From a virus, in IMG/VR virus record IMGVR_UViG_3300032164_000003, positions 27,089-91,088 of that record: a stretch of DNA of 64,000 bases; one strand, 5' to 3'. Below, piece after piece: positions 8,831-31,521 of this stretch. A program made the position numbers and the translations under genes. The notes beneath the pieces were generated by a model. It saw nothing but the letters and a program-made list of their open reading frames with translations, searched no databases and had not been told where the DNA came from. Numbering within the stretch: the stretch's first letter is position 1; each line of letters begins with the position of its first letter.

Positions 8831-8863
8831 AAGTTTCCTCCGGGGAAGTTTGGCAAGGCTCGT

Positions 8864-8891
8864 ATGGTAAGCGTGATACCAGGAAAGTCAA
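8864..8891 (-). promoter_or_regulatory. sigma70-type promoter for the sigma-like gene
   Basis: minus strand TTGACT-N16-TACCAT with upstream A-tract in the 8831-8915 gap. Confidence 0.55.
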
Positions 8892-8915
8892 GCTATTTTT
8901 TCAATGCTCACTAAC

Positions 8916-11517: not shown

Positions 11518-12057
11518 CTAGGCGGTGAATTTGTTCACGTATTGATCGAATTTTTCTTGCTCTTGGAGCAGATCATGATCTAGATTATGGAAATCATCTG
11601 TAGATACAAACTTGTTCACGTTCGCCATGATGTGATTATACAAGCGGGAACTACAAATATGCGATATTTTTGGGAGATTAATTTTGTTGAAGTAGCGACC
11701 GAATGCTAAGTCTATGAATTGTTTGTAATCCTTCTTTGGTATCTGCCCGCCGAGACGGAATTCATCAATCTTTTGGTATGTCAACACAATATTTCCAATT
11801 TGCCGATACTCGTGACCATAGCGTTCTACATACTTAGTACAGAAGTAATGGTAGAAGTCGAATGGCTTCCATAATTCGACATCCTTCAAGTGTGACCATC
11901 CACTAGTTTTTTGTATGTGATCCTTCAGGCGCTTGTTCTGGTGACGAAGGCGCTGCAAATGAAGAATGATGTGGCGCTCTATCGGATCGTCACTTACCGT
12001 TGCGTCGCGTACCATTAATTCTTCTAAACTTAGGTCTTTTAGATTTCGGTTTGCCAC
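11518..12057 (-). CDS. hypothetical replication-module protein
   Basis: 179 aa between helicase and loader. Confidence 0.6.
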   Translation of the reverse strand: MANRNLKDLSLEELMVRDATVSDDPIERHIILHLQRLRHQNKRLKDHIQKTSGWSHLKDVELWKPFDFYHYFCTKYVERYGHEYRQIGNIVLTYQKIDEFRLGGQIPKKDYKQFIDLAFGRYFNKINLPKISHICSSRLYNHIMANVNKFVSTDDFHNLDHDLLQEQEKFDQYVNKFTA

Positions 12058-13520: not shown

Positions 13521-14285
13521 TCAAGAAACAGGATACTTCTTCCTTATTATTTTCATATTATATTTACGTAATGATTCTGTTCCTATATTTAGTTCGGAGA
13601 ATGTGGCACGATGGACATGGTGAATGAACGTCCCAAGACTAAGCAAGATATTGTATCCATACGAGCGCATGCGTAGACAAAATTCGTCATCGTCCCCTAG
13701 CCCTATGCTCAACTCCTCACAAAGAGGCCCGATCTCAGTAAACAGTGCGCGGCGCATGGCGACGCAGAAGAATGAAAGGGACATCTTCTCCAGCTGTACA
13801 TATTTATCCTTTAATTTGGACAGACTATGTATAAAATCCTGCTTGTTTGCATGCCCGGTAGGCAGTTCCACACCAAGATTCTGCTGTATGCCGTAGGGCG
13901 TTTGCCAGGCAGAATTAAAGGTGACTGGACCCACTGCACCGACTCCCGGATAATGCATCAATGGTTTTATTAGTGTAATGTCCCAACCCCTAGTTACGCG
14001 CGTGTCATTGTTTAGCAAAATTACATAATCGCCAGTGGCCTCTTTAATCCCTTGATTGGTCGCCCGAATGAATCCCAAATTTTCTTTATTTAGGATCACC
14101 TTGCAATTTGATAACCGCGATGCCTGTCTCCTTATAATTTCTATTTCGTGCGTTTGCGATCCGTTGTCAACCCAGATTACCTCTGTAGGCAAACCAGTAT
14201 TTAGTCGGATGGATTCGAAGCACTGGACGGTATAGCCAGACTGGTTCAACACTGGAATAACAATGCTTACAGACGGATTACCCAT
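13521..14285 (-). CDS. GT2 glycosyltransferase
   Basis: SIVIPVLN, VDNGS, NLGF..ATNQG, LLNNDT, DDDEFC.R. Confidence 0.92.
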   Translation of the reverse strand: MGNPSVSIVIPVLNQSGYTVQCFESIRLNTGLPTEVIWVDNGSQTHEIEIIRRQASRLSNCKVILNKENLGFIRATNQGIKEATGDYVILLNNDTRVTRGWDITLIKPLMHYPGVGAVGPVTFNSAWQTPYGIQQNLGVELPTGHANKQDFIHSLSKLKDKYVQLEKMSLSFFCVAMRRALFTEIGPLCEELSIGLGDDDEFCLRMRSYGYNILLSLGTFIHHVHRATFSELNIGTESLRKYNMKIIRKKYPVS

Positions 14286-15105
14286 TAGGCCTTAGCTCTT
14301 TATCTATCTTGTTCTTCTTTTCCTTTAATAACCGGATGTTAGTTCTCCGTATATTGTCTACAGGGAGTTTGAGGGCGTTGAATGTAGTTCGGTGCCAGTG
14401 ATATACGAAAGTTCCTAAACTAATGAGTAACTTATATCCGTGCGCTCGCAATCTATAGCAATATTCATCATCATCGCACAACCCCATGCCGAAATCTTCA
14501 TCCAGTATGCCTATCTTATTTATAGTTGCTTTTGCTAGGGCGACACAAAAGAAGGACAGTGGGTTACCGTGTGTCTCCACATATTTTTCTTTGAACTTGG
14601 CGGTGAGTGCAGACCCGTACTGTGCAATTAGATTAGATATATTCCTGGTGATTGTGGGCGGATTGAACGCCGGAAGTCCGAGATGCCAGCGCCGGTTGAG
14701 ATGATTTGCAGCTTGCCAGGCTAACGCGCTTTGTGTTATCGGGCCAACGGCACCTATTATTGGATCTTTTAATGGGGCGACCAGCTTATTTACCCAACCT
14801 GCAGTTACTTCTGTGTCATTATTCAACAGAATTATATATTTTGCGCTTGGGGAAGCTGCACGAATGCCAATATTAGTTGCCTTTACAAATCCAACATTAG
14901 CTTGTAGGCGTATGGAATTTAGGCGTTCTCCAAACCTGGCAGAATGTTTTTTTATCGCCGCGTACATTCCGGGAATGGACCCATTGTCAACCCAGATTAC
15001 TTCATATGGAAGGTCTGTGTTAGCCAAAATGCTAGAAAAGCAGCGTGTCGTTTTTTCTTGTTCATTCCATGTAGGAATAATTATACTTACAATTGGGACA
15101 GTCAT
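14278..15105 (-). CDS. GT2 glycosyltransferase (paralog of neighbour)
   Basis: SIIIPTWN, VDNGS, LLNNDT, LDEDFGMGLCDDDEYC. Confidence 0.92.
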   Translation of the reverse strand: MTVPIVSIIIPTWNEQEKTTRCFSSILANTDLPYEVIWVDNGSIPGMYAAIKKHSARFGERLNSIRLQANVGFVKATNIGIRAASPSAKYIILLNNDTEVTAGWVNKLVAPLKDPIIGAVGPITQSALAWQAANHLNRRWHLGLPAFNPPTITRNISNLIAQYGSALTAKFKEKYVETHGNPLSFFCVALAKATINKIGILDEDFGMGLCDDDEYCYRLRAHGYKLLISLGTFVYHWHRTTFNALKLPVDNIRRTNIRLLKEKKNKIDKELRPNG

Positions 15106-15107
15106 AA

Positions 15108-15860
15108 TTATCTCACGGATTGTGCCTTGTGCATTTCTGCATTTTTCAGCATTCTGTATTTAGGATCATCGACATTTCCACGATGGTACACTAGATCACT
15201 AGTATTAAAATACCCGATCCAATACCCGTGATCTGCCGCTCGGCAACTCATGGGGTAGTCCACCCCGTAAACTATGCCTCCAGGATGCCCACCGATGTCC
15301 AGGAACTCTTTTCTGGGAGAGAGCCGGCATACCCCGTTCATCATCCACATTCTAGGATTGTAGCAGAGCAGTGCACGTTCTGAGTTTCCTAATGGGACTA
15401 TCTTACCCATGGCGTTCTGGTACATGCCTATTCCTGAGCGCGTTGCAAATGTTCCACTTCCACCCGTAGAATTTTGTCCACTCCAACCCATGTCCCATCC
15501 CAGGAACAGCAACTTTTTTTCGTTCAGTTTTTCGTATGCTTCTACCAGGCGTCGTCCAAAGTTATTGGGAACATCTATGTCGTCGTCCACTTTCAGTATA
15601 TACTTTCCGCGAGCATCTGTGGCCATAGTGTTGAAGGCTTCCATACCTATATTATTAGTGGCCCCATATACTTTATAGACTCTACAGTCAGCGTTTCCAT
15701 AAGAATAAATCCAATCGTATGATCCGTCAATGGATCCGTTGTCCCATAGGAGCACTTCGAATGGTATATTGCCTACCTTATCTACAATCTTTGGTATATA
15801 GTTACTGGATAGAATAACCCTATTGTAAGTTAAGATCAGAATAGAAATTGTAATACTCAT
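15108..15860 (-). CDS. GT2 glycosyltransferase
   Basis: SILILTYNR, DNGSIDG, ARGKYILKVDDD. Confidence 0.88.
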   Translation of the reverse strand: MSITISILILTYNRVILSSNYIPKIVDKVGNIPFEVLLWDNGSIDGSYDWIYSYGNADCRVYKVYGATNNIGMEAFNTMATDARGKYILKVDDDIDVPNNFGRRLVEAYEKLNEKKLLFLGWDMGWSGQNSTGGSGTFATRSGIGMYQNAMGKIVPLGNSERALLCYNPRMWMMNGVCRLSPRKEFLDIGGHPGGIVYGVDYPMSCRAADHGYWIGYFNTSDLVYHRGNVDDPKYRMLKNAEMHKAQSVR

Positions 15861-16232
15861 AAATCTGGTGCCTGGGGAATCTCGTACGTAATAATTTCAA
15901 CTGTCGGATTTGGAACATCAAATACGATCAGGCGCTGATCATATCCTCTCGCTGCCTCTTCTGCTCCTTCGTCAATGACTGTGCGCCGATTCAAACAGTT
16001 AAGATGCCCCTTTGTTCTTTTGTACATTACGATGCCCCTTTGTTCTTTTGTACATTACGATGCCATCTGGAACCGGTCGCTTTATTCTGCGGTGTGGTTT
16101 CTTTTCCTGCAGAGTAGGTTTTTTCTTTGGCTCTTTATGCGCCAGCCCATTAACAGTGGCACGCGGCCCAAGCGGACCTTTTCCAATTGCTGTCCGTCCT
16201 ATATTTTCTTGTCTAGTACGCATAATAAACAT
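15857..16232 (-). pseudogene. basic hypothetical gene frameshifted by a 28-bp tandem duplication
   Basis: Removing one repeat copy restores a 115-aa ORF whose TGA overlaps the next ATG (15860). Confidence 0.75.
16003..16064. repeat. perfect 28-bp tandem duplication
   Basis: GATGCCCCTTTGTTCTTTTGTACATTAC x2 followed by GATGCC. Confidence 0.97.
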
Positions 16233-16728
16233 TTTGTAAAGTGTATGCTGCTCCGATTAGCGCTTCTTTGCAGACGGTCGAATAATGTTTATTAAACATA
16301 CCTAGAAAACTTTCAGTGTTAAACAACGGGGCTATTCCTTGCGGTAGCTTACCGCCGGTAGCTGCCAATATAGCAACCACGTCCAGGTATGAAAAAACTA
16401 TTGATGAGCATGCCATCACAATGTTATTAATAAATGCAGGAACATCAAATATGTATTCAAAGATGCCAAGGCAGACACACATGGTGTCCTCTCTTGGAGT
16501 TACAATTTTTGGAAAATCCACGTTGAAATCTACAACTGTCACTCCTGGGAATGCCATGTATGAGTCATGTGGAAAATATACTTTATCGCTTTTCCACAAC
16601 TGCATGCCCATGTGCCCGGGTCCGCATCCGAGATCGTACACGTTTTTCTGCGGTAATTTTTTCACTAAGGTAGCGGCAATTCCCATTCTTTCGTCTATAA
16701 GGACAGTTGGACTTTTGTAGATGTTCAT
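16213..16728 (-). CDS. class I SAM-dependent methyltransferase
   Basis: VYDLGCGPG motif I, CLGIFEYI. Confidence 0.8.
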   Translation of the reverse strand: MNIYKSPTVLIDERMGIAATLVKKLPQKNVYDLGCGPGHMGMQLWKSDKVYFPHDSYMAFPGVTVVDFNVDFPKIVTPREDTMCVCLGIFEYIFDVPAFINNIVMACSSIVFSYLDVVAILAATGGKLPQGIAPLFNTESFLGMFNKHYSTVCKEALIGAAYTLQNVYYAY

Positions 16729-17372
16729 TTTATCCCTCGGAATTGATTTTCCAGTTCAATAACCTTCCCAAGCACAGTATTTAAGGATGCGTCAGAATAG
16801 TGACACCACATCAGTTTGCTTTGAAACGGATCTGACATCTGAACCATTGGCCAATGGCAAAGAGTACGCAGCGCCTGATTGTCATACGCAATTACTCTGT
16901 TCTTATCTGCTACATCCGCTAACTTTGTATTGTCATATATGACAAGTATTCTAAGTGTGTTGGATCCCCACATCGCAATTACTTTTTTCTCCATCGCAAG
17001 CATGCTTTTAGAAAATTCGTCGATGGACAAGCGTTCTACCGGTTTAGCTATCTTCTTTAGCTGCACCGCTCCCTCGTGCGGTCCAATTGCATATCGAATA
17101 CCGTCCTCAAACACGAAGTTGGGATGGTACGATTCATTGAATGGCGAAAATAAAAATGTATCTATTTTCTTTGGGATTTTGAACACGCGCACGTACCCAC
17201 TTGGCCACATATCAGTGTGCATAGCAGGTATCCGTGCGCCCGGCTCTGCTTTCTTCATAAACATATCCATAGTCATTGCATGCGCAGTATATGTCTCTGG
17301 AAAGTAAACGGTCATGCAATTAGCCATACTAAACCGTTTCACATACTCTATGTCCACTTCTTGGTGATGCAT
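16725..17372 (-). CDS. hypothetical protein
   Basis: 215 aa, coupled within operon. Confidence 0.6.
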   Translation of the reverse strand: MHHQEVDIEYVKRFSMANCMTVYFPETYTAHAMTMDMFMKKAEPGARIPAMHTDMWPSGYVRVFKIPKKIDTFLFSPFNESYHPNFVFEDGIRYAIGPHEGAVQLKKIAKPVERLSIDEFSKSMLAMEKKVIAMWGSNTLRILVIYDNTKLADVADKNRVIAYDNQALRTLCHWPMVQMSDPFQSKLMWCHYSDASLNTVLGKVIELENQFRGIK

Positions 17373-17379
17373 GCTAATC

Positions 17380-18405
17380 CTAAGGAAGATTTACCGTCGG
17401 ACCAAACCTACAGTAGTATGCGTCGTCTTGACGGGCTCCTGGGATATAGTTCCATGGGTTGAGTCCGTACCACAATCCCCAGAACGGTGTGCCGCAATAA
17501 TTGGCCGGGCACGCGGTTGGGCTGGATCTAAAATTGAAATTGCCACCAACAAAGTCCCCAATATGGTGTGTGTTCAATCCAAAGCACGGAAAGATGCTTC
17601 CAGAAATGTCCATATATGCATAGCTACATCCGGCATCACAGGGCATACCCTTAAAGAATCCCGCCCCGGCACAGTACAACTGCTGACATGTTCTTCTATA
17701 CTTTGTAACGCTTGCCAGAATTTCTCGTTCTTTTTGTGTGTATGCTTGTGGGTATGCGCCGTTTGAATTCGCTACGCTCTTTGGAGATCCGTGTATAAAC
17801 ACCCATGGAAGTATTGGGGCGTTTTCCGGAAGCAATGTTTGTAACCATTTCATTTTGTCAGGAAACGCAGTTATCTCTGCTGGTTGTACTACGGTTTTAA
17901 GTATTGTAGTAAATCCACGCGCTGCTGCCTCATGAAAATTGTTCATGTATATACTGCGGGCATACTCATCTGTGTCCAAGCGCCACCCATGATAGGTAGC
18001 CATAATCTGCCCAACGTGTGCCGGGTCAACCTGATTTACCCACTCAGTGAATCGGCCAGTGGTTAGATTAGTGTGTAATTCTAAAACGAATCCCCGTTTT
18101 CCAAGCTCCTTATACAATTCAGGAAGCTGTTTTACCATTGTCGGCTCACCACCGCTAATGGTTAGATATACATTTTTCTTGGCGGCGATTCTAAGTTGTT
18201 CCATTCGCGCAACGACCTTGTCAACACCACCCAACATATTTATCAATGTGGGTACTGGCGTCTTAGACTTCCAGCCTACGCAATAAGGGCAGTTCATTGT
18301 GCACTGATGCGTAATTATCCAGGCGAGGTTGAGCCAATCTAGTCGTTTCCTGGATGGAAAGTCTCCTAGCTCCATTTCGCCGTTTGGCAATGTGTATATA
18401 TTCAA
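17380..18405 (-). CDS. radical SAM enzyme with SPASM/twitch-like domain
   Basis: CTMNCPYC, SGGEP, HTN, CDAG....G.IFPC, CPANYC. Confidence 0.92.
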   Translation of the reverse strand: MNIYTLPNGEMELGDFPSRKRLDWLNLAWIITHQCTMNCPYCVGWKSKTPVPTLINMLGGVDKVVARMEQLRIAAKKNVYLTISGGEPTMVKQLPELYKELGKRGFVLELHTNLTTGRFTEWVNQVDPAHVGQIMATYHGWRLDTDEYARSIYMNNFHEAAARGFTTILKTVVQPAEITAFPDKMKWLQTLLPENAPILPWVFIHGSPKSVANSNGAYPQAYTQKEREILASVTKYRRTCQQLYCAGAGFFKGMPCDAGCSYAYMDISGSIFPCFGLNTHHIGDFVGGNFNFRSSPTACPANYCGTPFWGLWYGLNPWNYIPGARQDDAYYCRFGPTVNLP

Positions 18406-19283
18406 GTTATCCTCTTTATTGTTTTATCACACCAGTACATGAATGCACTTTTTGTTGCGTCTACAATGCTCCTATATGTGCTCGGATTCTGCAGGGTCAT
18501 AGGAGCAGTTTTACCAAGCGGATTTATAATAATACCAAAAAGATCTAAAAGTGAAAATCTAGAATCTGCCGGATCCCCGAAAAAGTACACTGGTTTGTCT
18601 TGAGATAATGCCGGGAGAACACTATGCAATCTTCCAGTATATACTGCCCGTGTTCCTGCGTACACATTCATAACCTCATCCGGATTATCATAATAAATTG
18701 CATCTGCATGCAGTCCGATAGCCATTGGAAGTTCGAAGTGGCGTTCTTGAATAGACGCCACTATCTTTCCAGGAATCTTAGACAAAAATGAAAGCTGCCA
18801 TGGGACATTCGTTCGGGCGAAGCCCACAATGTTATAAGGAATAGTACTGCTCCATTTTCTCTTAGGCAAATATGCAGTAGGACAACCGACCAAGATAGCG
18901 GATATTCCCAAGTTGCGACAAGCAGCCAGGGTAGCCGGATCGCGCACCCCGATTGGTGGTGTGATGTGTTTAAGAATTTCTTTGTTTATAGGGTATGTTG
19001 GTCCCCAGAAGGACGCGGCGGTACAGAATTTTGGAACCTTTATCTTAGAAAGCGCTGCAGTAGCCTCTCCCTGACCTTGTCCGGTAGCTAAAATTGTAGA
19101 TCCTGGAAGCAGCACAAAGTCACATTTATTTAGTTCTACAATCTCCTGCGCGGAAGGGTACGAAAACATAGAAACAGCTACTGATGGGGCAGGAAGATTT
19201 GCCAACGTCTTTACCGCATACTCGATTAGTCGATTTCCAAGATTAGAATTCGGAGTATCTATAGTAAGTATTCCGTATTTCAT
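18402..19283 (-). CDS. polysaccharide pyruvyl transferase family protein
   Basis: NLGNRLI, GVRD..T, GCP, TGRLHS motifs. Confidence 0.75.
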   Translation of the reverse strand: MKYGILTIDTPNSNLGNRLIEYAVKTLANLPAPSVAVSMFSYPSAQEIVELNKCDFVLLPGSTILATGQGQGEATAALSKIKVPKFCTAASFWGPTYPINKEILKHITPPIGVRDPATLAACRNLGISAILVGCPTAYLPKRKWSSTIPYNIVGFARTNVPWQLSFLSKIPGKIVASIQERHFELPMAIGLHADAIYYDNPDEVMNVYAGTRAVYTGRLHSVLPALSQDKPVYFFGDPADSRFSLLDLFGIIINPLGKTAPMTLQNPSTYRSIVDATKSAFMYWCDKTIKRIT

Positions 19284-20011
19284 TTTCCATCTCTGAAGTT
19301 GAAGAAGCGTGTTCTGTTTTCTACAAGCAGTCTTTCATAAACATCCTTTTTTCCAATCTTTTCCATCAGTGCGCTATACGGGGGATGCCATATATGAATA
19401 GGATGAATGTTAGTATTACGTGCGCCTACGCCACTTCTAGTTAATCGAACGAATAAATCGTTGTCTTCCCCACCCCATCCTTTGTAAGCTTCGTTGTACC
19501 CCCCGTGTGCAGAGAACCACTGCTTCATTACACCCATGTGGCTAAAACCGTCTGGGCGTGTATCATGTATTCCTTGACCGTTTATGCTAGCTAGTACGTC
19601 ATTGTAATTGCCTGTTTGGCGCACCCCTTCTAAGCTGTCATAAACCAAATTGAACGTGAATGCTCGACTATTAATAAATTTTATATTCTCTTGTACATAG
19701 TTTGGTGGTATCACACAATCTGCATCGACGAAAAGTATAACGTCACCAGGAGCATTCTTTATTCCGACATTCAGTGCACAGCTTCTGCTCCAAATCGGTC
19801 CCTCTCCACGTAAATATGTTAATCCATTATTTTGTGCAACATCTTTTATACTTTTTACGTATGCCGACTCACTACCATAATCAACCAGTACATTTTTGCA
19901 GTGTATGTTCTGTTTGCTTACAGATTCTGCAGACAGAACTAGGTTTCCTAGATAGACCTCAAACGCTGGTTCGGAAACACGGATTGGAATTATGATTGTT
20001 GGTATTGTCAT
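19280..20011 (-). CDS. GT2/GT7C-type glycosyltransferase
   Basis: VDYGS, RSCALNVG, FVDAD, GGYNEAYKGWGGEDNDL. Confidence 0.9.
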   Translation of the reverse strand: MTIPTIIIPIRVSEPAFEVYLGNLVLSAESVSKQNIHCKNVLVDYGSESAYVKSIKDVAQNNGLTYLRGEGPIWSRSCALNVGIKNAPGDVILFVDADCVIPPNYVQENIKFINSRAFTFNLVYDSLEGVRQTGNYNDVLASINGQGIHDTRPDGFSHMGVMKQWFSAHGGYNEAYKGWGGEDNDLFVRLTRSGVGARNTNIHPIHIWHPPYSALMEKIGKKDVYERLLVENRTRFFNFRDGK

Positions 20012-21024
20012 TTAAGTCCTATGGACGAGAGCACATCTAATAGGTAATCGACACGATGTGCATATGTGTGTTGCGCCAGTATTTTCTTCCTAGCATTCTC
20101 GCCTATCTTGTTGCGAGCGTCTGGATTTTTTAGATAGTAACTAGCCTTGTTTTTGAAATCAGTAATGTCAGAATAATATACTAGGTCTTCTCCATCTGTG
20201 AAGAACTTATCTATTTCTGGCTGATTATCTAGTAATAGAAATCCACCGACCCCCATTACCATAAACACACGGTCATTTAGGTATCCAGGAGATCGTACTA
20301 TATGGTTAGAAAAGTTTATCCTAGACTTCTCGAACAGTGTATGCACGGTGCTCCAATTGTCCCAAGATCCTTTGTAATGTTGTGTCAGCCTAGGATCTCC
20401 ACTAAGTACTTTCCCGCCAGCGGCTACCCACATCTTATCGCCATATAGCTGTACATTAATTCCAGAATTTATTAATGACCATATCATGTCCGTTCTTTTA
20501 AGTGGAGAAATTACATACGGAGATCCTGCGAATATACAGTCTATTTTATCCGCTTCCTCCACAGGAGAAACTTTTCTGTCTACATTGTCCCATGCTGGCC
20601 ACCACAAATGTGCATAAGAAAATCCTAAAGATTTGTAGACTGCCATGCTTGCCATGTCACAGGTTAATGCGATCTGATACCCACGATGCATATAGTGACT
20701 GGAGAACTGTTGCACAAAAAATGGATCGTCTTGGCTCCAGTATATGGTCGTACCTACTTTTGCCCGGATCCACTCTGTAGTCTCTGGAAGGATGTATTTA
20801 TCGAAAAAGTATCCCTTGCAGCAAATGTACACATCTGGTTTTTCTTCTTCTATCTGTCTTCTTAGTATCACATCATATTGTTTCATACTCACATTTGGAT
20901 TGGCAAAATACGAGTAACAAACGTAGTCATTTATATTTCGATCAGCACCAACTACAGTGTGCCCACGCTCTTGCAGGCGGTGAATTATTCCGGGATATGC
21001 ACCAGAGTTTATGAAGAATTTCAT
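20008..21024 (-). CDS. CgeB/YkvP-like GT-B glycosyltransferase
   Basis: WSQDDP, LNDRVF...GVGGFLL, F.DGEDLVYY, HTYAHRV. Confidence 0.85.
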   Translation of the reverse strand: MKFFINSGAYPGIIHRLQERGHTVVGADRNINDYVCYSYFANPNVSMKQYDVILRRQIEEEKPDVYICCKGYFFDKYILPETTEWIRAKVGTTIYWSQDDPFFVQQFSSHYMHRGYQIALTCDMASMAVYKSLGFSYAHLWWPAWDNVDRKVSPVEEADKIDCIFAGSPYVISPLKRTDMIWSLINSGINVQLYGDKMWVAAGGKVLSGDPRLTQHYKGSWDNWSTVHTLFEKSRINFSNHIVRSPGYLNDRVFMVMGVGGFLLLDNQPEIDKFFTDGEDLVYYSDITDFKNKASYYLKNPDARNKIGENARKKILAQHTYAHRVDYLLDVLSSIGLK

Positions 21025-21746
21025 TACAATTCTCCCCAAGCGGTATCTTCGTTTACGATTATTTTTCCGGCTCGCTGGTTCGCACAGAATAATGCGCTGT
21101 TTTGTACATGGCCAGTTAAGTCAATATCATGTGGCATGTGCACCATACTTGTAAAATTATCAATGAAGGTAATCCCATATCCAAGTAATGACAGTCTATA
21201 AACAAAATCACAGTCTTCATAGCCCCAGCCAATAAACTGCTCATCGAAGCCGTGCATATATAGTGCATGTTCGGTGTGGCACCCTAAACAGCAACCCTCT
21301 CCTAAGAATTTATTATTCTTTTTAGCTATTTCCAAAACCGCATTGTAGGATTTGTACAGACTTGCTCTTGGTATATTTTTTGGGATTTCCGGGAGAAAGT
21401 ATGTGTTGCATTTTGCTAGAACACGCGAAGTTCCAATTGTATCCCTAACGGTCTTGAAAAAATCGGTGGCAAACAATTGGTCCGCATCCGTAAAGACCAC
21501 ATACTTGGTTGTTACATGGCGCAGTCCGATATTAAGCGCACGCGCCTTGTGAAATCTACCTGTATTTCTTCCCACATGTACAACCTTCAACCATTCCGGA
21601 CCGCACATTGTTACTGGTGGATAACTTCCGAAGTCCACGATTATGCACTTTGGGATATCAGAGTTTACAGATATAGAGTTTACACAGCACGCTATGTTTT
21701 CATTTCTGTTCTTAACCGCAATTACTGCTGTAAGATCTGTCAGCAT
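21024..21746 (-). CDS. GT2/GT7C-type glycosyltransferase
   Basis: VDFGS, KARALNIG, FTDAD, GFDEQFIGWGYEDCD. Confidence 0.9.
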   Translation of the reverse strand: MLTDLTAVIAVKNRNENIACCVNSISVNSDIPKCIIVDFGSYPPVTMCGPEWLKVVHVGRNTGRFHKARALNIGLRHVTTKYVVFTDADQLFATDFFKTVRDTIGTSRVLAKCNTYFLPEIPKNIPRASLYKSYNAVLEIAKKNNKFLGEGCCLGCHTEHALYMHGFDEQFIGWGYEDCDFVYRLSLLGYGITFIDNFTSMVHMPHDIDLTGHVQNSALFCANQRAGKIIVNEDTAWGEL

Positions 21747-21748
21747 TA

Positions 21749-22750
21749 TTACTTTAATATTCTATTGAGTTCTTCTAAGAATCTTTTTGTTGCATTTGCC
21801 CAAGAAAATGTTTTTACAAGCGCCCTCCCGTTTTCGGATAATGTCTTGTGCAACACTACATCAGAAATTATTCTATGCGCGGCGGCAGCTACATCATTAG
21901 AATTATCTTTAGAGATTAGGCATGTCTTGCCATCTCTCATGTACTCGTCCAAACCCATGCTTGGAATATACACTACTGGGGTTCCACATGCAAGGCTTTC
22001 TAGCGTTGGAAGTCCCCAGCCCTCGCTTAATGATGTAGATAACCATACAGTGCACATAGCATATATAGTAGGAATTGTTAGCTGTTGCGGATTTGTGTAA
22101 ATCTGATACTTTATACCCCGTTTGGAAAACTCTCCTATTGAATTAATGTTAGTAGAGGAGATCATTATTGGAACCACATTTATATTATATGTTTCCTTCA
22201 GCAGAATTACGGCCTCGACAAATCTGTTGAAGTTCTTCATGGGGCTTTTGTGAAAAAGACCGCCGACTAAAATAGTGTGGGGATCTCTAGTAACCAGGCT
22301 CGGAGAGAAGATGCCGTCTATTCCAGGATGGATAATCGTGATGTCCTTGTGCCCATACTTTAGTGCTACATCTGCTAGCCACTTGGATGTTGCAATGACT
22401 GCGGTATATGGGAACTTCAGATTCCTTTCCTCTGTGGGCATGTGCTGTGTTCCAAAACCTTGAAGAAGTAGTATTTGTTTTTTATTATGCAGTTCCGGGA
22501 ATATCCTGCCATCTGCAAAGTTCACTATACACGCCGCAGAAGCTAACCAGGGATGTGTTGGGCTACTTGCTTGAGCGAAGGGAGTTTGCTGTGCCGCGCC
22601 ATCAATTAGCCAGGGCATATTTGCATCTGTGATACGGCGTACTGCTATTACCGCATCAACGCCCTGTTTGCGCAGGGCATGTGCAAACCTAAATATTACC
22701 TTAACTCCACCAGACACGCTGGTGTGTGGGCACATAAATACTAGTTTCAT
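21749..22750 (-). CDS. GT4 glycosyltransferase
   Basis: SGGVKV, EGWGLPTLESLACGTPVV, FSW. Confidence 0.92.
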   Translation of the reverse strand: MKLVFMCPHTSVSGGVKVIFRFAHALRKQGVDAVIAVRRITDANMPWLIDGAAQQTPFAQASSPTHPWLASAACIVNFADGRIFPELHNKKQILLLQGFGTQHMPTEERNLKFPYTAVIATSKWLADVALKYGHKDITIIHPGIDGIFSPSLVTRDPHTILVGGLFHKSPMKNFNRFVEAVILLKETYNINVVPIMISSTNINSIGEFSKRGIKYQIYTNPQQLTIPTIYAMCTVWLSTSLSEGWGLPTLESLACGTPVVYIPSMGLDEYMRDGKTCLISKDNSNDVAAAAHRIISDVVLHKTLSENGRALVKTFSWANATKRFLEELNRILK

Positions 22751-23388
22751 CTTTTTACAATGCACCCGCGCTCTCTCCAGTAGAGCTTTCGTGCGATAAG
22801 GCGTTCCGCTTTTATATTGACGCCACTCTTCTTAGAACTGGCTTCTCCTATGTGATAGACAAACGCGTCCTTGCGCCAAAGGAACTTGTATCCCAGCTGT
22901 CTTCCGCGATCTTCTAGATCTGTATCTTGGCCATATAGATAGTAGCGCTCATCGAAGCCGCCTAGTTTTCTCCAAAGTTCCCTTTCAAACAATAAACAAA
23001 ATCCACTTAGTGGATCTACTACTTCGGCGCACTGCCCAAAACACTTTTCGGCTTGTTCCCAGGTTCTGATCGTCCTTGACGGTCCAAAATGACAGTTGGT
23101 AGATGGACCTACAAATCCGCATTTAGGATACGCGGCGAGCGTCTCTATCATTCTGGAGAGCCAGTGCGGATATACTAATGTATCATTATTCAACAAACAA
23201 ATATATTTATTGTCGCAATCTTTTATCAGCCTATTCCAGATCTCTGTAAGTGTATGTCCGCTTTTAAAATTATCGAGGAAGGTTATGGTAGCAGGAATGT
23301 CGGTGTTTTTCTTAACACTCTCTATGCATGCTGCTTCTTCTTTTGGTAAATTGTATCCTATTATGATAATGTTTATCTTGTCATTCAC
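22747..23388 (-). CDS. GT2 glycosyltransferase
   Basis: LLNNDT, SGFCLL, GGFDERY..YGQDTD. Confidence 0.88.
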   Translation of the reverse strand: MNDKINIIIIGYNLPKEEAACIESVKKNTDIPATITFLDNFKSGHTLTEIWNRLIKDCDNKYICLLNNDTLVYPHWLSRMIETLAAYPKCGFVGPSTNCHFGPSRTIRTWEQAEKCFGQCAEVVDPLSGFCLLFERELWRKLGGFDERYYLYGQDTDLEDRGRQLGYKFLWRKDAFVYHIGEASSKKSGVNIKAERLIARKLYWRERGCIVKR

Positions 23389-23947
23389 TTCTTTTCTCCA
23401 GCGTGCACTTGTTCCCTATCTTCTTTAATATGTCCGCGATTTGCTTTGATGCTTTCTCCCCATTTAGATACAGAAGCAATGCTATGCCCATTTTTGCTAA
23501 GCAAAACGCGTCAACTTGATTATTGTCTGTGAGTGTATCTGACCCTAAGCCAAACTTACGAAAGGTTTGTTCTAGCATTATCTCTTTTGGGGCATTTCCC
23601 TTACCTGTAATAAACTTCTTCAGCGACGTAGGGGGAACCTCGTAGTATCCGTTCCATTTTCGTGCAAGGAGTAACCGTAGGACTCCACCTAGCTCTCCTA
23701 GATCGAATACGCGCCCCTTTCCGGCAAATGCGTACCCCTCTATAAATAGGGCCGGTTGTTCTCCTGCAGAAAATTCTGTTACGCGGGCATTTACCTTTCT
23801 AGAAATCCAGTCTATGCGCCGTATACCACGAAGCCCATCTGGGGGATTTAGCGTACATGTGTGTAGGAGCTTTCCGGAAAGCCGCGAAAGTGCGCACATC
23901 CCAGTGCCGACGAGGCTAGGATCAATCCCGATAACTATCTGGGACAT
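23381..23947 (-). CDS. ruvC: RuvC-like Holliday junction resolvase
   Basis: IGIDPSL..TG, IEGY, LGELGG, PT.LKKFITGKGNA.KE, NQVDAF. Confidence 0.88.
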   Translation of the reverse strand: MSQIVIGIDPSLVGTGMCALSRLSGKLLHTCTLNPPDGLRGIRRIDWISRKVNARVTEFSAGEQPALFIEGYAFAGKGRVFDLGELGGVLRLLLARKWNGYYEVPPTSLKKFITGKGNAPKEIMLEQTFRKFGLGSDTLTDNNQVDAFCLAKMGIALLLYLNGEKASKQIADILKKIGNKCTLEKRSE

Positions 23948-24539
23948 CTTTTACTCCAAACACGGGCTTGTAGTGTGGGTCTGATACCAACGGTGGTGTA
24001 CTCAGTGCCTCATTTATAAGATCCTTGAACAGTTCCTCATTAGTAATTGCTAGAAAGGCACTACCAAGTATATGACGTAGTAATGCGAACAGCCTTGCAT
24101 TAGTTATGTCGCCATTCTCGTTTGTATTGTCGCAGAACGAATATGAAGACGGGTCTTTAGCACCCAAACTGAGATCGGCAATGGAGACATCGATCACAAT
24201 GCCGTCAAGCGGATAGTATATTTTATTTCCTTCATCCACACGGCAGGCCTCCTTCAAGCCAACACACCGGTAACACACACCCTGAACCGTGCTCTCGGTT
24301 GCAACTACAGACATACGTAATGCGCGTGATGTTTTCCTGTCCACAAATAATCCGCCACGCTGCTCTGTTCTGTAGCCATCCTCATTAGTGGCGTGCAGAA
24401 TAGGAAGCTCGTGGAATTGATCCACACCATCCCAGAGCACTGTATTCGCAAAAAGTAACGTATTGAGATAATCGATGATGTACTTTTTCGTTATCTTTTC
24501 TATGTGATAATTTACTGCCGTTTGCGGTTTTTCGTTCAT
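23922..24539 (-). CDS. hypothetical protein
   Basis: ATG at 24539 overlaps upstream TGA. Confidence 0.6.
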   Translation of the reverse strand: MNEKPQTAVNYHIEKITKKYIIDYLNTLLFANTVLWDGVDQFHELPILHATNEDGYRTEQRGGLFVDRKTSRALRMSVVATESTVQGVCYRCVGLKEACRVDEGNKIYYPLDGIVIDVSIADLSLGAKDPSSYSFCDNTNENGDITNARLFALLRHILGSAFLAITNEELFKDLINEALSTPPLVSDPHYKPVFGVKDVPDSYRD

Positions 24540-24877
24540 TTTGCGTCTCCGCATTTTAACAAGTACGCTTCTACCGGATCTTTGATCTGGCTTGCCCATA
24601 CTTCCTTCATCTTTATGGATGTATCCTTAACTGTGGCCTCTAATTTCTCTATAGCATTGATCAGTGTCCGTATGCTTCCGTCCAGCGTTTTAGCTGTTTC
24701 CTCGCTTCGTAGCATGTGCCGAACATACCCGCGAACTACATCGCCAATCTCATAATAAAAGTACTTCGAAATCCATTGTTCTCCATCTTTCGTTCGTACA
24801 CGAAGGACAAAGGATTCATTGGCAGCGACAAGCTGCGTGCTCTTATCCAAATTACATAGAACATATCCGTCAGTCAT
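24536..24877 (-). CDS. hypothetical protein
   Basis: 113 aa in operon. Confidence 0.6.
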   Translation of the reverse strand: MTDGYVLCNLDKSTQLVAANESFVLRVRTKDGEQWISKYFYYEIGDVVRGYVRHMLRSEETAKTLDGSIRTLINAIEKLEATVKDTSIKMKEVWASQIKDPVEAYLLKCGDAK

Positions 24878-24880
24878 CGC

Positions 24881-25312
24881 TTATTTCCTCGGTAGAAGGT
24901 GCGAAACATTACCTGGAATATCTCCTGGTGTTGCTAATGTTATTCCACTTAGTGCAGCACGATACTTTGCAACTGCATCGGTATAACTTTGGAACAACCT
25001 TTGATTTTTTATGCAACTTTCGTTATTGGTTTCATCAGCAATAACTTCTCCAAGTACCTCTACAGAAGTGGGGAAAAGTGCTAATGTTTCCTGTTGGGTA
25101 TCTCCAAAATATGGAGATCCTATGCTCATTGCCACACGCCGACCATCGCCAACCGGTTGAACAAATATCGCCCGCACATCATGCATGACAAGTGCGGTTT
25201 CTCCATCACGCCATGTTGCATATTCGGCCGTTGTAGCTACGCCAAGCCACACGTTTGGCATTGAATCAGGTACCACAAGTAAAAATATCTTAGGGCCAAC
25301 TAGATTACTCAT
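24881..25312 (-). CDS. hypothetical protein
   Basis: 143 aa in operon. Confidence 0.6.
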   Translation of the reverse strand: MSNLVGPKIFLLVVPDSMPNVWLGVATTAEYATWRDGETALVMHDVRAIFVQPVGDGRRVAMSIGSPYFGDTQQETLALFPTSVEVLGEVIADETNNESCIKNQRLFQSYTDAVAKYRAALSGITLATPGDIPGNVSHLLPRK

Positions 25313-26327
25313 CTTTCCTCCCTAGGACGTCGGTTATAGCCGCGTCCCATAGTTTGTAATTTGTAGAAATACTAAAGTTTTCTTTAACTACGCGCTTGGC
25401 ATTTTCCAAAATGCGCTTGTGCATGTCTTGATCTGCAAGTACCATACGAACCTTTTCATACCACTCGCTGTTGTCAGAGACTAAGATCCCAGTTACCCCG
25501 TCCTCGATGGTGTCCTTATACGGTCCAAAGTTCGATGCAACGGTCACGGCATCATGAACTGTATATTCAAGAAACTTAAGGTTAGATTTGCTTTTGTTAA
25601 ACACGTTGGCGCAGAGCGGAGCCAAGCCAACGTAGGTTCCCACCTGTGAGAACATCTGATAGAAGGCTTCGAAGGGCACCAATTGTAATGTCTCAGCACC
25701 AGGAATATTGAATGCCGGTTCTCGCGTCTTGCCATCATAGCCACACCAGAGTTTAAATATGATATCTTGGTCCTTTGCCAACTGTTCGAATCCAGCACGG
25801 GCAACCATAAGATCTCGTTCATGTGTCGTTGAGCCCTGCCAACAGACTACAGGCTTTACTGTATTTCTGTTACATGGATAGATAATCTCAGAGTCTACAG
25901 AATTTGGAAGCACATATATGTTCTCACAATAATTTCGGTATATACCGCGTAATTCTTCTGTTGTGACAAATATTGCATCAACATTGGACACGAAGTACTT
26001 TATTCCGTCTTGAACCTTCTTGACATTGAGTGTTTTTGCGGCAGGATTCCATTCAGGTATATTGAATAAGTCATCATCAATTTCATATATAAGCTTTGCG
26101 CCCTTCTTTTTCATCTCAAGCGCGGGTGCCAGTACTTCAAGCTTGTACTGGCGTTGTAGAATGACTACATCATATTTACCAATTTGATCCTTTGAAATAG
26201 ATCCAGAAACACTGATCTCAAACTTCTCCTGATTATTCCTAGCAATATAGACAAGCGGGGAATGGATCCTATAAAACCAACACGCGGCACGGTCACCGCG
26301 ATACGCAATTAGTTTAGTCTTACTCAT
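25305..26327 (-). CDS. GT4-like glycosyltransferase
   Basis: ACWFYR, YEIDDDL, LPNS, FNKSKSNLKFLEY, EDGVTGILV. Confidence 0.9.
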   Translation of the reverse strand: MSKTKLIAYRGDRAACWFYRIHSPLVYIARNNQEKFEISVSGSISKDQIGKYDVVILQRQYKLEVLAPALEMKKKGAKLIYEIDDDLFNIPEWNPAAKTLNVKKVQDGIKYFVSNVDAIFVTTEELRGIYRNYCENIYVLPNSVDSEIIYPCNRNTVKPVVCWQGSTTHERDLMVARAGFEQLAKDQDIIFKLWCGYDGKTREPAFNIPGAETLQLVPFEAFYQMFSQVGTYVGLAPLCANVFNKSKSNLKFLEYTVHDAVTVASNFGPYKDTIEDGVTGILVSDNSEWYEKVRMVLADQDMHKRILENAKRVVKENFSISTNYKLWDAAITDVLGRKDE

Positions 26328-27474
26328 TGTACTCTTCCTTAGTGGAGGCAAACGAGGGCTGTGGATCACTGGCCAAATTAGGATCTCCTGCCATCACGAT
26401 TCCAGGAACTAGTGATGTAGCAGTGCTATACTTTTGATCGCTTGGCGGTGGTGCACGCCGCGCTGCCTCTAATTCTGGATTTCCTTTGTTCTCTTGCTTT
26501 CTCTTTCTGTTGTCTTCAAGAGCTTCAAGTAAGCTCTTTTCAAGATCTCCCGCTGGCATCTTTGCGCATACCTGATTTGGACATTCCCACAGGAGGGATT
26601 GCCGCGTCTTTGGATTTTTGTAGCCCGGGGCCATATCAAGTAATGCGCCAACGGGCCGGTTACACGGCCACAAATTACATCCTCCACTGTACGACACATT
26701 ATAGTTATTGGCATATCCAAAGAACTTAGGATCAGTATTTTGAAACACAACAATGCCCCGAGTGCCAAGCCCGTTTGAACAGTGCGCAAATAGACTTTCT
26801 ATAAATATGTACGTGTCTACAAGCGGGATCAGAGCGATTGTTTCGCGCATCTGCATGCCAAGTGCATCAATGGTGCCTGGTACCTTCGGTTCTCCTTCGA
26901 GTCCAATATGAATAAACAGTGCTTTGTCCTTTAGCTTTTCTACAACTGTAGACACCATCTGTATGTTCAGATCTTTTAAATTGTTAGTCTTATTGAAGTT
27001 TCCATCTGACGGGATCGCCCCCGTACAGTGCAATAGCACCAATGGTTTATTCAGTATGCGGTACTGATCCAAAAATGTATGCGCTGCGCGGCGCTCATAC
27101 TCTGTACTTGTATAGTCCAAAGGTAATCCATCGTACTCAGCGCCGTACACCCGACAGATGAACTCTGGTAGAGTTTTGCATCCCGTAGCAGGTTCGTCCA
27201 TTATTGCATCATAAACAAAATGCTTTTTGAAAAACCTAATATTGTAATTTAGAACGTGTTCCGAATAAAAATCCTTGGGATCCTTCAACGGAATAAGTTT
27301 ATCTATGTTAGCATTGTTTTCCAAAAGCTGTGCGTATGTGCTAGTTACTACAATTTCATCGTCAGGATATTTTTTTCTAAAATAGCGAATCATGGGGGTA
27401 TGAGACAATACATCGCCTGCGCCGCCTTGGCAGAACAAAATTATGCGCGATTTCTTTTCAAACTTCGTAGCCAT
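26320..27474 (-). CDS. GT9-like (heptosyltransferase-type) glycosyltransferase
   Basis: GGAGDVL..TP, R...ALI, IESLFAH, Cys-rich tail CNLWPC..C...C. Confidence 0.8.
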   Translation of the reverse strand: MATKFEKKSRIILFCQGGAGDVLSHTPMIRYFRKKYPDDEIVVTSTYAQLLENNANIDKLIPLKDPKDFYSEHVLNYNIRFFKKHFVYDAIMDEPATGCKTLPEFICRVYGAEYDGLPLDYTSTEYERRAAHTFLDQYRILNKPLVLLHCTGAIPSDGNFNKTNNLKDLNIQMVSTVVEKLKDKALFIHIGLEGEPKVPGTIDALGMQMRETIALIPLVDTYIFIESLFAHCSNGLGTRGIVVFQNTDPKFFGYANNYNVSYSGGCNLWPCNRPVGALLDMAPGYKNPKTRQSLLWECPNQVCAKMPAGDLEKSLLEALEDNRKRKQENKGNPELEAARRAPPPSDQKYSTATSLVPGIVMAGDPNLASDPQPSFASTKEEYNE

Positions 27475-27579: not shown

Positions 27580-27935
27580 TGTACGCACTATAAAATTATA
27601 AATTTATAGAAAACGTGCTATCAACCTTATTGTAGGCGATACCACTAGTACTAGTAACCTAGCTATATGCACCTGGGCACATATACTAGGCATAGCACAA
27701 GTCCTATATCCTTTAGGGCTAATATTACACCTGGGGCCTAATATTAGGCCTTAAGGACTAGGCTATAGGCTATAGGCTATAGGCTATAGGCCTTGGGGCT
27801 AATATTACACCTAAGTCCTAATATTAGGCTTAAGGGTTAAATTACCATTATATAAGGACTAGTAGATAGATCTCCGCCCTCAGAGCCGGGCGTAGATCCT
27901 TATATCTAAGTCCTAGTCCTATAGGCTATAGGGCA
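27580..27935. repeat. repeat/palindrome cluster at the strand switch, candidate replication origin
   Basis: (GGCTATA)x4 at 27761-27788; GGGCTAATATTACACCT at 27716 and 27796; palindrome GGCCTAATATTAGGCC 27735-27750; long inverted repeat 27855-27920. Confidence 0.75.
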
Positions 27936-31513: not shown

Positions 31514-31521
31514 AGGCTACC

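Follow-up and report, generated by a model that had tools for sequence, protein, structure and literature searches.

We analysed the last 64 kb of the 91,088-bp IMG/VR virus record IMGVR_UViG_3300032164_000003 (hereafter the window, 64,000 nucleotides in all), which by its gene content, a replication arm plus terminase, portal, capsid and tail genes, comes from a tailed phage (hereafter the present phage). At positions 13521-27474 the window holds a glycosyltransferase (GT) island of ~14 kb, which lies entirely on the minus strand and forms the promoter-proximal part of a leftward early replication operon. The island encodes ten GTs (six GT2, a GT4, a divergent GT4-like, a CgeB-like and a predicted GT9-fold enzyme) together with a pyruvyl transferase and a radical S-adenosylmethionine (SAM) enzyme. 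Its genes and associated features, with lengths in amino acids (aa), are as follows.

27595-27624, minus strand: best sigma-70-like promoter match, upstream of the GT9-like gene (TTGATA-18-TATAAT, 11/12)
26320-27474, minus strand: predicted GT9-fold glycosyltransferase, 384 aa, first gene of the leftward operon (predicted fold and motif)
25305-26369, minus strand: divergent GT4-like GT-B transferase, 354 aa (sub-threshold Glycos_transf_1; family profile)
24881-25312, minus strand: conserved small protein, 143 aa, probably outside the glycan pathway (no Pfam or NCBIfam match)
24536-24877, minus strand: conserved small protein, 113 aa (47% identical to the gene at the same position in the related locus L046)
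23922-24539, minus strand: conserved protein, ~205 aa from an internal ATG (no Pfam or PDB match)
23381-23947, minus strand: RuvC-like resolvase, 188 aa, a DNA-metabolism gene inside the island (Pfam RuvC E 2.2e-4, just below the cut-off)
22747-23388, minus strand: GT2, 213 aa, conserved core (Glyco_tranf_2_3, 34 bits; LLNNDT motif)
21749-22765, minus strand: GT4, 338 aa, core (Glycos_transf_1, 58 bits; Glyco_trans_1_4, 56 bits; EX7E at residue 248)
21024-21746, minus strand: GT2 with a Glyco_transf_7C-like C-terminus, 240 aa (Pfam; DAD motif)
20008-21039, minus strand: CgeB-like GT-B transferase, 343 aa (Glyco_trans_1_2, 99.9 bits)
19280-20011, minus strand: GT2, 243 aa, third member of the radical SAM/pyruvyl transferase/GT2 cassette (Glyco_tranf_2_2, 65.9 bits; Glyco_transf_7C)
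18402-19283, minus strand: polysaccharide pyruvyl transferase, 293 aa (PS_pyruv_trans, 62.8 bits)
17380-18405, minus strand: radical SAM enzyme with a putative four-Cys twitch-like C-terminal domain, 341 aa (Radical_SAM, 36.5 bits)
16725-17372, minus strand: protein seen only in the present phage, 215 aa (no Pfam or NCBIfam match)
16213-16728, minus strand: possible SAM-dependent methyltransferase, 171 aa (sub-threshold matches and a DLGCGPG motif)
15999-16232, minus strand: small open reading frame (ORF), 77 aa, possibly not a gene (no matches; no homologue in relatives)
15108-15860, minus strand: GT2, 250 aa, conserved helicase-proximal end (Glycos_transf_2, 47 bits; DDD motif)
14278-15105, minus strand: GT2, 275 aa (Glycos_transf_2, 83.8 bits)
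13521-14285, minus strand: GT2, 254 aa, last island gene, 6 nt from the helicase gene (Glycos_transf_2, 89.3 bits; LLNNDT motif)
12039-13514, minus strand: UvsW-like superfamily 2 helicase, the downstream anchor of the island (ResIII, Helicase_C, UvsW_N)
31937-32683, plus strand: RmlA-like sugar-1-phosphate nucleotidylyltransferase in the late arm, two genes before the terminase (NTP_transferase, 170 bits)

Pfam matches above the curated cut-offs were obtained for all six GT2 proteins (Glycos_transf_2), one GT4, the CgeB-like transferase, the pyruvyl transferase and the radical SAM enzyme. The initial annotation of the window had listed six GT2, two GT4, one CgeB-like and one GT9-like transferase with a pyruvyl-transferase-like protein, a SAM methyltransferase, a radical SAM/SPASM enzyme and RmlA in the late arm, and most of this roster is borne out. 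The GT2, CgeB-like and pyruvyl transferase calls stand as made, and the GT9-like call, weak by sequence, is upheld by the predicted fold. Among the two GT4 calls, 21749-22765 is secure; 25305-26369 by itself falls just below the Pfam cut-offs (Glycos_transf_1) and is GT4-like by its homologues and its profile. The methyltransferase call is still weak, the radical SAM call holds with a smaller auxiliary domain than SPASM, and the RmlA gene is a real NTP_transferase whose best NCBIfam models, rmlA_long and rmlA, both score below the equivalog cut-offs.

The island was also described as co-oriented and mostly translationally coupled, and this agrees with its 18 gene junctions: at 12 of them the genes overlap by 4-50 nt, at five they are 2-7 nt apart, and the only sizeable gap, of 138 nt, comes after 15999-16232. 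All of the ORFs are intact, and they lie close together. Five of the six GT2 genes encode a DXD-type motif (LLNNDT, DDD or DAD), and the GT4 and the GT4-like genes each have an EX7E-pattern match. By motif pattern search, seven of nine transferases matched; the pattern was found neither in the CgeB-like gene nor in the GT2 at 13521-14285, whose LLNNDT was read by eye. The promoter listed above is a consensus match from a scan of the 630-nt divergent intergenic region, where the total number of matches did not exceed that in shuffled sequence.

To place the island among other phages, we used 21 related IMG/VR loci identified via the capsid protein and many more identified via alignments of the GT4-like protein and the helicase. 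The island was found in at least seven related IMG/VR phages (G002, G004, G006, G007, L033, L037 and L046/L047). In these relatives it always lies upstream of a UvsW-like helicase, whose homologue is directly downstream in G002, G004, G006, G007 and L037; where both ends are on record, it starts at the divergent promoter. Its length is about 19 kb in G002 (121 kb, capsid 74% identical) and in G004 (145 kb), about 8 kb in G006, and about 16 kb in G007 (L100; 183,765 bp with terminal repeats, 100% complete); in the partial loci L033, L037 and L046/L047 it is itself partial. The island proteins are syntenic and 34-70% identical across relatives. We did not count as an absence the contig G003, which is only 19% complete and has no island genes in the 12.5 kb upstream of its late arm. 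As a separate observation, GenBank lists G007 (JBAZJW010000002.1) as a scaffold of a 'Candidatus Paceibacterota' metagenome-assembled genome although it is a whole phage genome; its presence there is either a binning artefact or a hint to the host of the lineage.

Comparison of the islands revealed a conserved frame and exchangeable cassettes. The frame consists of the GT9-like and GT4-like genes at the promoter end, the 213-aa GT2 and a GT4 in the middle, and a GT2 pair on the helicase side. In G006 the island is minimal, comprising the GT9-like and GT4-like genes, three small proteins, the RuvC-like gene, the 213-aa GT2, two GT4 and two GT2 genes, followed by the helicase. Homologues of the 213-aa GT2 (22747-23388) are 47-56% identical in G002, G004, G006, L033 and L046, those of the GT4 (21749-22765) 33-36% identical in relatives, and those of the GT2 at 15108-15860 47-60% identical in G002, G004, G006, G007 and L037. 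The two GT2 genes nearest the helicase, 13521-14285 and 14278-15105, are paralogues of 42% identity, representing a duplication in the present phage of a gene with one copy in relatives; the first is 50-52% identical to its counterparts in G002 and L037. The GT2 at 21024-21746 has homologues of 36-41% identity in G002, G004, G007, L033 and L046, and the CgeB-like protein is 40% identical to that encoded at 42439-43455 of G002.

The lineage-specific cassettes sit between the GT4 genes and the helicase-proximal GT2 pair. The cassettes of both G002 and G004 include a methyltransferase, a DegT aminotransferase and a nucleoside-diphosphate (NDP)-sugar 4,6-dehydratase. G002 has in addition two sulfotransferases, two GT10 fucosyltransferases and FkbM- and TylF-type methyltransferases, and homologues of one of these sulfotransferases, one fucosyltransferase and two methyltransferases are present in G004. 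Eight genes of G007, including a GT4-methyltransferase fusion, have little or no match in the window or in G002. The cassette of the present phage is the trio of radical SAM enzyme, pyruvyl transferase and GT2, which recurs as a unit in G004, with 53, 50 and 33% identity. Pfam assignments for 90 proteins encoded in the islands of six relatives were mostly to GT2, GT1/4, methyltransferases and sugar-nucleotide enzymes.

The island has the composition of its phage: GC content at third codon positions (GC3) is 0.36-0.47 for the island genes, and both GC and GC3 match the surrounding replication genes and the phage average. The closest homologues of three tested island genes are almost all metagenomic, and the IMG/VR contigs fetched for them are viral. 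A megablast search of the island against GenBank phages gave no match. In 50,697 GenBank phage records, tblastn with the CgeB-like protein recovered a single weak, partial match, in a faecal phage fragment that carries no annotation; mycobacteriophages and cyanophages yielded none. Pattern scans of IMG/VR, run with the CgeB-like protein and the helicase one at a time, gave no matches. Judged from this comparison of genomes, the island appears to be a vertically inherited phage feature, the ends of which are conserved and the middle of which is swapped.

These data bear on the possibility that the island is a recently captured, decaying host lipopolysaccharide (LPS) or exopolysaccharide (EPS) locus with no role in the phage, which the initial annotation had named as the case against a phage-encoded pathway if the cluster were not conserved among relatives. 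The enzyme families are indeed typical of bacterial polysaccharide loci. However, the ORFs are intact and packed and most of the transferases retain their motifs, the codon composition is that of the phage, and the nearest homologues are metagenomic or viral, with matches in bacterial genomes of only 21-30% identity. Because the island is conserved in synteny among its relatives, we reject this explanation, which we now regard as barely credible.

By sequence, the GT9-like protein (26320-27474) matches NCBIfam at its N-terminus only (E 2.7e-6), and single-protein sequence searches of PDB gave generic matches or none. An AF2 model made from 47 homologues (predicted local distance difference test, pLDDT, 87.7) was most similar to the GT9 structure 3tov (VIA Z 24.3), followed by TibC (21.9), WaaF (21.4) and WaaC (19.8), with the next fold at Z 12; the predicted fold thus places the protein in GT9. 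The N-terminal QGGAGD...TP motif is conserved in the 47 homologues and aligns to 3tov, and C266, C271, C298 and C303 in the C-lobe are conserved in at least 90% of them. Overall, the protein has 92 homologues, nearly all metagenomic; PF01075 is on record for five of these, and it matches three relatives.

TibC glycosylates protein in the cytoplasm and has a four-Cys iron finger in its C-lobe and an N-terminal beta-barrel formed by residues 1-97 (PMC4358343). The phage model and TibC align over 276 residues, from TibC residue 86-87 onward, and the model has its first Rossmann strand at residues 10-15, which suggests that the phage protein is built without the TibC barrel. The protein would share with the TibC/AAH autotransporter heptosyltransferases (PMC4358343) the GT9 GT-B fold, and its four C-lobe cysteines, which are in the region of the iron finger, may correspond to it; but it apparently lacks their N-terminal domain, and in the model comparison the LPS heptosyltransferases match equally well.

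The GT4-like enzyme (25305-26369) is the most widely conserved island gene. It is present in every relative with the island and is the only island gene near the helicase in the distant G008. Its family has 111 homologues, about 90 of them at 42-69% identity, and most (about 90) carry PF00534. A profile of 32 homologues matches the C-domains of PglH/WlaC, BshA, MshA-type enzymes and TreT in PDB. Homologues in bacterial genomes are only 21-30% identical and are taxonomically scattered.

Among the tailoring enzymes, the pyruvyl transferase is the most securely assigned, with PF04230 scoring well above the cut-off of 25.3 bits over profile positions 1-277 of 280. Its 50% identical homologue in G004 likewise adjoins a radical SAM gene, so that the two genes are neighbours in both phages with visible context. 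The radical SAM enzyme has C35x3C39x2C42 and C256-X12-G269-X4-C274, C299 and C304, all invariant in 22 sequences; the second of these segments is an instance of the CX9-15GX4C element, and twitch/SPASM enzymes head its list of fold matches. The enzyme has 22 homologues, all metagenomic. The presence of only four auxiliary cysteines points to a twitch-like or partial SPASM C-terminal domain rather than the full SPASM domain first annotated.

In the biosynthesis of blasticidin S, the radical SAM enzyme BlsE serves as cytosylglucuronate decarboxylase, and its target is a sugar acid, a glucuronic acid moiety. Our model of the phage enzyme (pLDDT 93.7) had its best fold match to BlsE (PDB 7vob; VIA Z 19.1 over 274 of 327 residues), followed by SkfB (17.7) and others at 15.8 or below, including DesII, viperins and anSME; there is also a faint NCBIfam match to BlsE (TIGR04466). 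The two enzymes share the CX3CX2C site and a C-terminal domain for an auxiliary cluster. They differ in that identity is 14%, the peptide maturase SkfB is only 1.4 Z units behind, and BlsE has no pyruvyl transferase neighbour. Since the best match is to BlsE and the neighbour is a pyruvyl transferase, sugar editing seems the likelier role by a small margin over peptide maturation. We considered decarboxylation of a pyruvate ketal by the radical SAM enzyme and did not adopt it, as it is speculation from adjacency and the BlsE match.

The third tailoring candidate, at 16213-16728, is a possible methyltransferase. In addition to its GCGPG motif, it gave an MTS match of E 0.008, below the cut-off, and a PDB match to Methyltransferase type 12 of E 0.19; the matches span ~35 residues, and a hydrophobic stretch occupies residues 82-125. 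The RmlA-like gene is found at the same position, with 47-58% identity, in G002, G003 and L033. Around it, 31166-31929 upstream encodes two small proteins with one and two hydrophobic segments, which are possible lysis or membrane proteins, and downstream is a WYL-domain protein (32677-33276) overlapping the start of the terminase gene; this block is kept in G002, G003 and L033.

The initial annotation had noted that no flippase, polymerase or membrane protein of the GtrAB type was present, and had read the island as a cytoplasmic glycan-building set with tailoring enzymes. Both points hold. When all ORFs of at least 60 aa in the present contig, the complete G007 and the available sequence of G002, G004 and G006 were scanned for hydropathy, no encoded protein exceeded three hydrophobic segments. 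The scan accordingly gave no polytopic candidate for a WecA-type priming enzyme, and the priming transferase family Bac_transf (PF02397) is absent from G000, G002, G004, G006 and G007. Nor was a phage-encoded flippase, polymerase, ligase or ABC permease or exporter found in the present contig and the relatives scanned, which sets the island apart from Wzx/Wzy- or ABC-dependent polysaccharide loci. The lack of polytopic membrane proteins and of a primer argues that the enzymes are soluble and that the product is built in the cytoplasm on an existing acceptor. That the island is functional, conserved and cytoplasmic is a conclusion in which we have high confidence.

The acceptor that we favour is one or more of the phage's own virion proteins, to which we give a little less than an even chance; it is our leading inference rather than a finding. 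In the proposed pathway, an acceptor that is itself conserved and cytoplasmic would receive a conserved inner glycan, attached and lengthened by the frame enzymes, and the cassette enzymes would add lineage-specific outer sugars and decorations, in the present phage a pyruvate ketal, possibly a methyl group, and a sugar edit by the radical SAM enzyme. The late-operon RmlA-like enzyme would top up dTDP-hexose during particle assembly. The result would be a lineage-specific surface glycan, as in Megavirinae fibrils and mycobacteriophage capsids.

In keeping with this pathway, the frame enzymes are kept at 42-69% identity across phages that have diverged enough for different hosts, which argues for a conserved acceptor, as a phage protein would be. 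The RmlA-like gene lies beside the terminase in the late operon in three relatives. For the predicted GT9-fold enzyme, the match to TibC, a protein heptosyltransferase, is as good as those to the LPS heptosyltransferases, and the four C-lobe cysteines lie in the region of the TibC iron finger. Finally, the architecture of the island parallels that of the Megavirinae fibril glycosylation clusters. We hold only tentatively, and would sooner doubt than accept, the more specific proposal that this uncultured 180-200-kb lineage coats its particles with lineage-specific pyruvylated, methylated, sulfated or fucosylated glycans, built in the cytoplasm, primed by a TibC-like GT9 and varied by exchangeable cassettes, as a counterpart of Megavirinae fibril glycosylation. 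In such a particle coat, the BlsE-like radical SAM enzyme paired with the pyruvyl transferase may edit a ketal or a uronic acid.

Several observations weigh against glycosylation of the virion. No acceptor protein was found: a sequence scan revealed no Ser/Thr-rich tail or mucin-like tract in any virion protein, a result that neither shows nor excludes glycosylation, and three large proteins encoded between the head and tail genes have no Pfam match. The RmlA-like gene is missing from G007, in which the island is present, and from L035, in which the first island gene is visible before the contig ends. In G002 the GT9-like gene lies outside the island, at 112515-113501 (L141/L142) on the plus strand, alone and ~56 kb away, just after the tail/baseplate module and among small minus-strand genes; the gene therefore moves independently and is not obligately linked to the operon. 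Single, weaker homologues of the GT4-like enzyme (25-36% identical) are present in many otherwise unrelated viral contigs. In addition, it is the early replication operon, with its host-type promoter match, and not the structural module that contains the island, and every enzyme family of the island would be just as much at home in the synthesis of LPS, EPS or teichoic acid.

The last two of these observations suit a remodelling of the host envelope, in which the soluble transferases would act on host lipid-linked intermediates (lipid A-core, undecaprenyl-linked O-antigen, capsule or teichoic acid) and host exporters would display the altered glycan, thereby blocking superinfection or stopping progeny from adsorbing to debris. 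The GT9, GT4, GT2, pyruvyl, fucosyl- and sulfotransferases are LPS core, O-antigen and EPS families, and the best sigma-70-like site precedes the island, which is the part of the early operon closest to the promoter. A pathway with no export parts of its own is compatible with use of the host machinery, a conserved inner and a variable outer part mirror the architecture of the LPS core, and comparable cyanophage clusters have been read in this way (PMC12801897). However, host lipid-linked acceptors are usually strain-specific, whereas the frame is conserved across phages divergent enough to differ in host. Furthermore, no GT has a membrane anchor, the sugar-nucleotide gene belongs to the late operon for packaging, we noticed no lysogeny genes in the scanned parts of the genome, and a ten-sugar rebuilding of the surface would be slow for one lytic cycle. 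We take envelope remodelling seriously and nevertheless consider it unlikely.

The initial annotation had offered DNA as an alternative acceptor, and the position of the island, interleaved with replication and recombination genes and thus presumably expressed early, speaks for hypermodification of the genome, in which transferases such as the GT4-like enzyme would glycosylate modified bases as a protection against restriction, and others would extend the sugar. Homologues of the GT4-like enzyme that are 25-33% identical lie beside DnaB, helicase, PolA or RecA genes in other viral contigs, and near the helicase in G008. Specifically, a single homologue directly follows DnaB in L071 and L072, and in L054, L081, L082, L084 and L098 (G008) it has PolA, RecA or a helicase as a near neighbour, at most a few genes away. 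Known DNA glycosyltransferases include GT-B enzymes resembling BshA, MshA and PglH, and add heptose or up to three sugars (bioRxiv 10.1101/2023.12.21.572611).

Every known route to DNA glycans, however, needs a hydroxylated pyrimidine (5-hydroxymethyl or 5-hydroxy), made either with a thymidylate-synthase homologue or with a C5-methylase plus TET (PMC13326640; bioRxiv 10.1101/2023.12.21.572611). Among the 30 viral records with the GT4-like enzyme that were searched, none contained the thymidylate-synthase family PF00303; seven of these records are at least 90% complete, and the control was positive in 10 of 14 genomes. This set comprised the present contig (~50% complete), G002, G004, the complete G007, G008 and 25 further records, so the test rests on the relatives; it includes records with a single GT4-like homologue, and none of those has a gene of this family. 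The C5-methylase family PF00145 was present in 3 of 18 records (none of the five closest and 3 of 13 others), and thus not consistently. TET (PF12851) gave no match, but the control was likewise silent everywhere, which makes this negative weak. Consequently, of the earlier statement that hydroxymethylase and TET genes are lacking in the window, the first half is substantiated and extended to the relatives, and the second is left weak. The number of transferases, at least ten, and the pyruvyl, sulfo- and fucosyl tailoring also far exceed the mono- to trisaccharides described on DNA. Because no hydroxymethylase is present in the relatives examined, DNA glycosylation is disfavoured, and we judge it very unlikely.

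Another cytoplasmic acceptor could be a phage or host protein outside the virion, modified for anti-defence or takeover, or RNA, a small molecule or a free oligosaccharide. Soluble enzymes, early expression as judged from position, and the lack of export parts would all fit, and the phage invests in RNA repair (Ro60, RtcB and tRNAs). Several GT4 members also match the Pfam family 'GT4 in conflict systems', but more weakly than they match generic GT4. There is no pointer to any specific target, and the size of the island and its diversification by lineage are more readily understood if the product is an exposed structural glycan than if it is a regulatory modification. An acceptor of this kind seems to us quite improbable, and glycosylation of virion proteins is still the reading we prefer.

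Large virus-encoded glycosylation gene sets have precedents. In Megavirinae (Mimivirus, Moumouvirus, Megavirus, Cotonvirus and Tupanvirus), the fibril glycosylation clusters have 6-33 genes depending on the clade, include pyruvyl- and sulfo-transferases, and lie beside a helicase in several clades (PMC10117803, PMC8456856). Like them, the phage island combines virus-encoded soluble nucleotide-sugar enzymes and many GTs with a pyruvyl transferase, methyl- or sulfo-modifying enzymes and GT-methyltransferase fusions, and it varies in size and content by lineage (about 8-19 kb here) next to a helicase. In contrast, the Megavirinae are giant viruses that infect eukaryotes, and their glycans have been determined chemically on named fibril proteins, while the phage island is known from its genes alone. 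No sequence relationship between the two has been demonstrated, and the helicase adjacency may be coincidence.

The T4-like cyanophages S-SCSM2R (13 glycosyltransferases), S-SCSM1 and P-SSM2 carry gene sets for 'cell wall synthesis and modification', for which the published reading is modification of the host surface (PMC12801897). These are also large lytic environmental phages with at least ten GTs and sugar-nucleotide enzymes, including GT10, GT2, GT1/4 and RmlC/epimerase-type genes. However, they are another lineage, the CgeB-like gene has no cyanophage homologue, and the genes here form one contiguous operon segment of frame and exchangeable cassettes.

Freeman et al. in 2023 reportedly described virion glycosylation in actinobacteriophages (Che8, Corndog and Myrna), in which two to a few GTs are said to modify C-terminal tails of capsid and tail-tube subunits. 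There, as here, soluble phage GTs are encoded outside the structural module; in those phages, decoration of the virion by these enzymes has been either proposed or demonstrated. The present phage differs in having ten GTs plus tailoring enzymes and no such tails on the capsid and tube candidates, and the CgeB-like gene, the only gene tested, has no homology there. With virus-encoded virion glycosylation in general, the island shares soluble GTs, its own sugar-nucleotide supply (to which the relatives add a dehydratase and an aminotransferase) and lineage variation at a conserved locus.

Multi-transferase islands in cyanophages and virion glycosylation in mycobacteriophages and giant viruses are thus already established. 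New here are the phage lineage, the frame-plus-cassette anatomy between promoter and helicase, and two typed enzymes, the predicted Cys4 GT9 and the BlsE-like radical SAM enzyme paired with a pyruvyl transferase; no new kind of system is established. If the glycan is on the particle, virion self-glycosylation would extend from mycobacteriophages and giant viruses to a common environmental phage group, and the frame and cassettes would show how phages diversify a surface glycan, akin to bacterial O-antigens. Should it be the host envelope that is altered, the island would rank among the largest phage-borne surface-conversion kits. Either way, it provides a compact soluble enzyme set for substrate tests: the Cys4 GT9, the pyruvyl transferase with the radical SAM enzyme, and the sulfo- and fucosyltransferases of the relatives. 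Its value is limited by the fact that the phage is uncultured and that comparable cyanophage islands have already been described.

The lineage is one of uncultured large tailed phages of about 180-200 kb. The record of the present phage is linear and ~50% complete according to CheckV. Identical or near-identical copies of its GT9-like and radical SAM proteins (P0113 and P0204) are found on a 199,096-bp contig from another assembly, which would be a near-complete copy of the present phage; its full genome is therefore probably near 190-200 kb. The leftward arm (364-27474) contains, besides the island, RecA/UvsX-like and PolA genes, both intein-bearing, DnaB, a DnaC-like loader and the UvsW-like helicase. 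The rightward arm, from 28104, contains a metallopeptidase, an N6/N4 DNA methylase, the RmlA-like gene, the WYL protein and the terminase, portal, capsid and tail genes, and the 27 kb preceding the window contain tRNAs, RtcB, Ro60, ribonucleotide reductase and SbcCD. The nearest named phage, Virus Rctr197k from a methane-oxidising enrichment, has a capsid of only 47% identity; no GT2, GT4-like or GT9-like homologue was found in it, and it is uninformative on the island.

Four genes within the span have no sugar signature, namely the RuvC-like gene (23381-23947) and the three conserved small proteins (23922-24539, 24536-24877 and 24881-25312), and these separate the first two transferases from the remaining island. 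Homologues of 24881-25312 (24-41% identity) occupy the same position in G002, G004, G006, G007, L033 and L046, and the protein of 23922-24539 is kept at 30-60% identity in relatives. The ORF of the latter extends over 23922-24599 (225 aa), but its Atlas entry starts at residue 21, and the ATG there is the probable true start, which abolishes the overlap with 24536-24877. A language-model comparison gave this protein a weak lead to families of the RNA-dependent RNA polymerase type (PF05183; score 0.90, 147 shared features), below the usual level of true members. RuvC matches were obtained in three relatives (best E 7.5e-10). The RuvC-like gene encodes 530-533 aa in L046 (12450-14042) and L047 (12422-14023), compared with 173-245 aa elsewhere, and the long form may reflect an insertion or an intein, as in the RecA-like and PolA genes of the lineage. 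Two further ORFs without a match, 15999-16232 and 16725-17372, are seen only in the present phage; for the latter, no homologue was found in the relatives examined, and a poor Atlas model (pLDDT 0.31) bears only a TM 0.4 likeness to SGNH/GSCFA folds.

Between the head and tail-sheath genes, two large genes, 52885-55926 and 55946-58357, have a GC3 of 0.87 and 0.75 and a GC content of 0.64 and 0.61, compared with a GC3 of about 0.36-0.50 for other genes of the present phage. Neither has a Pfam match or a homologue in G007. The G002 orthologue of 52885-55926 is 71% identical at the protein level, which is above the genome norm, and has a GC3 of 0.43, so that the GC saturation at synonymous sites is confined to the present phage; recent recombination from a high-GC relative and extreme codon selection are possible causes. 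Finally, at 6581-10741 of the genome (L001), before the window, an early-arm gene encodes a 1386-aa protein with DUF5661 and a weak GNAT match. The one mucin-like tract that the scan returned in the whole contig is in this protein, a Ser/Thr/Pro-rich stretch of ~45 residues, which could be an O-glycosylation site or a mere linker.

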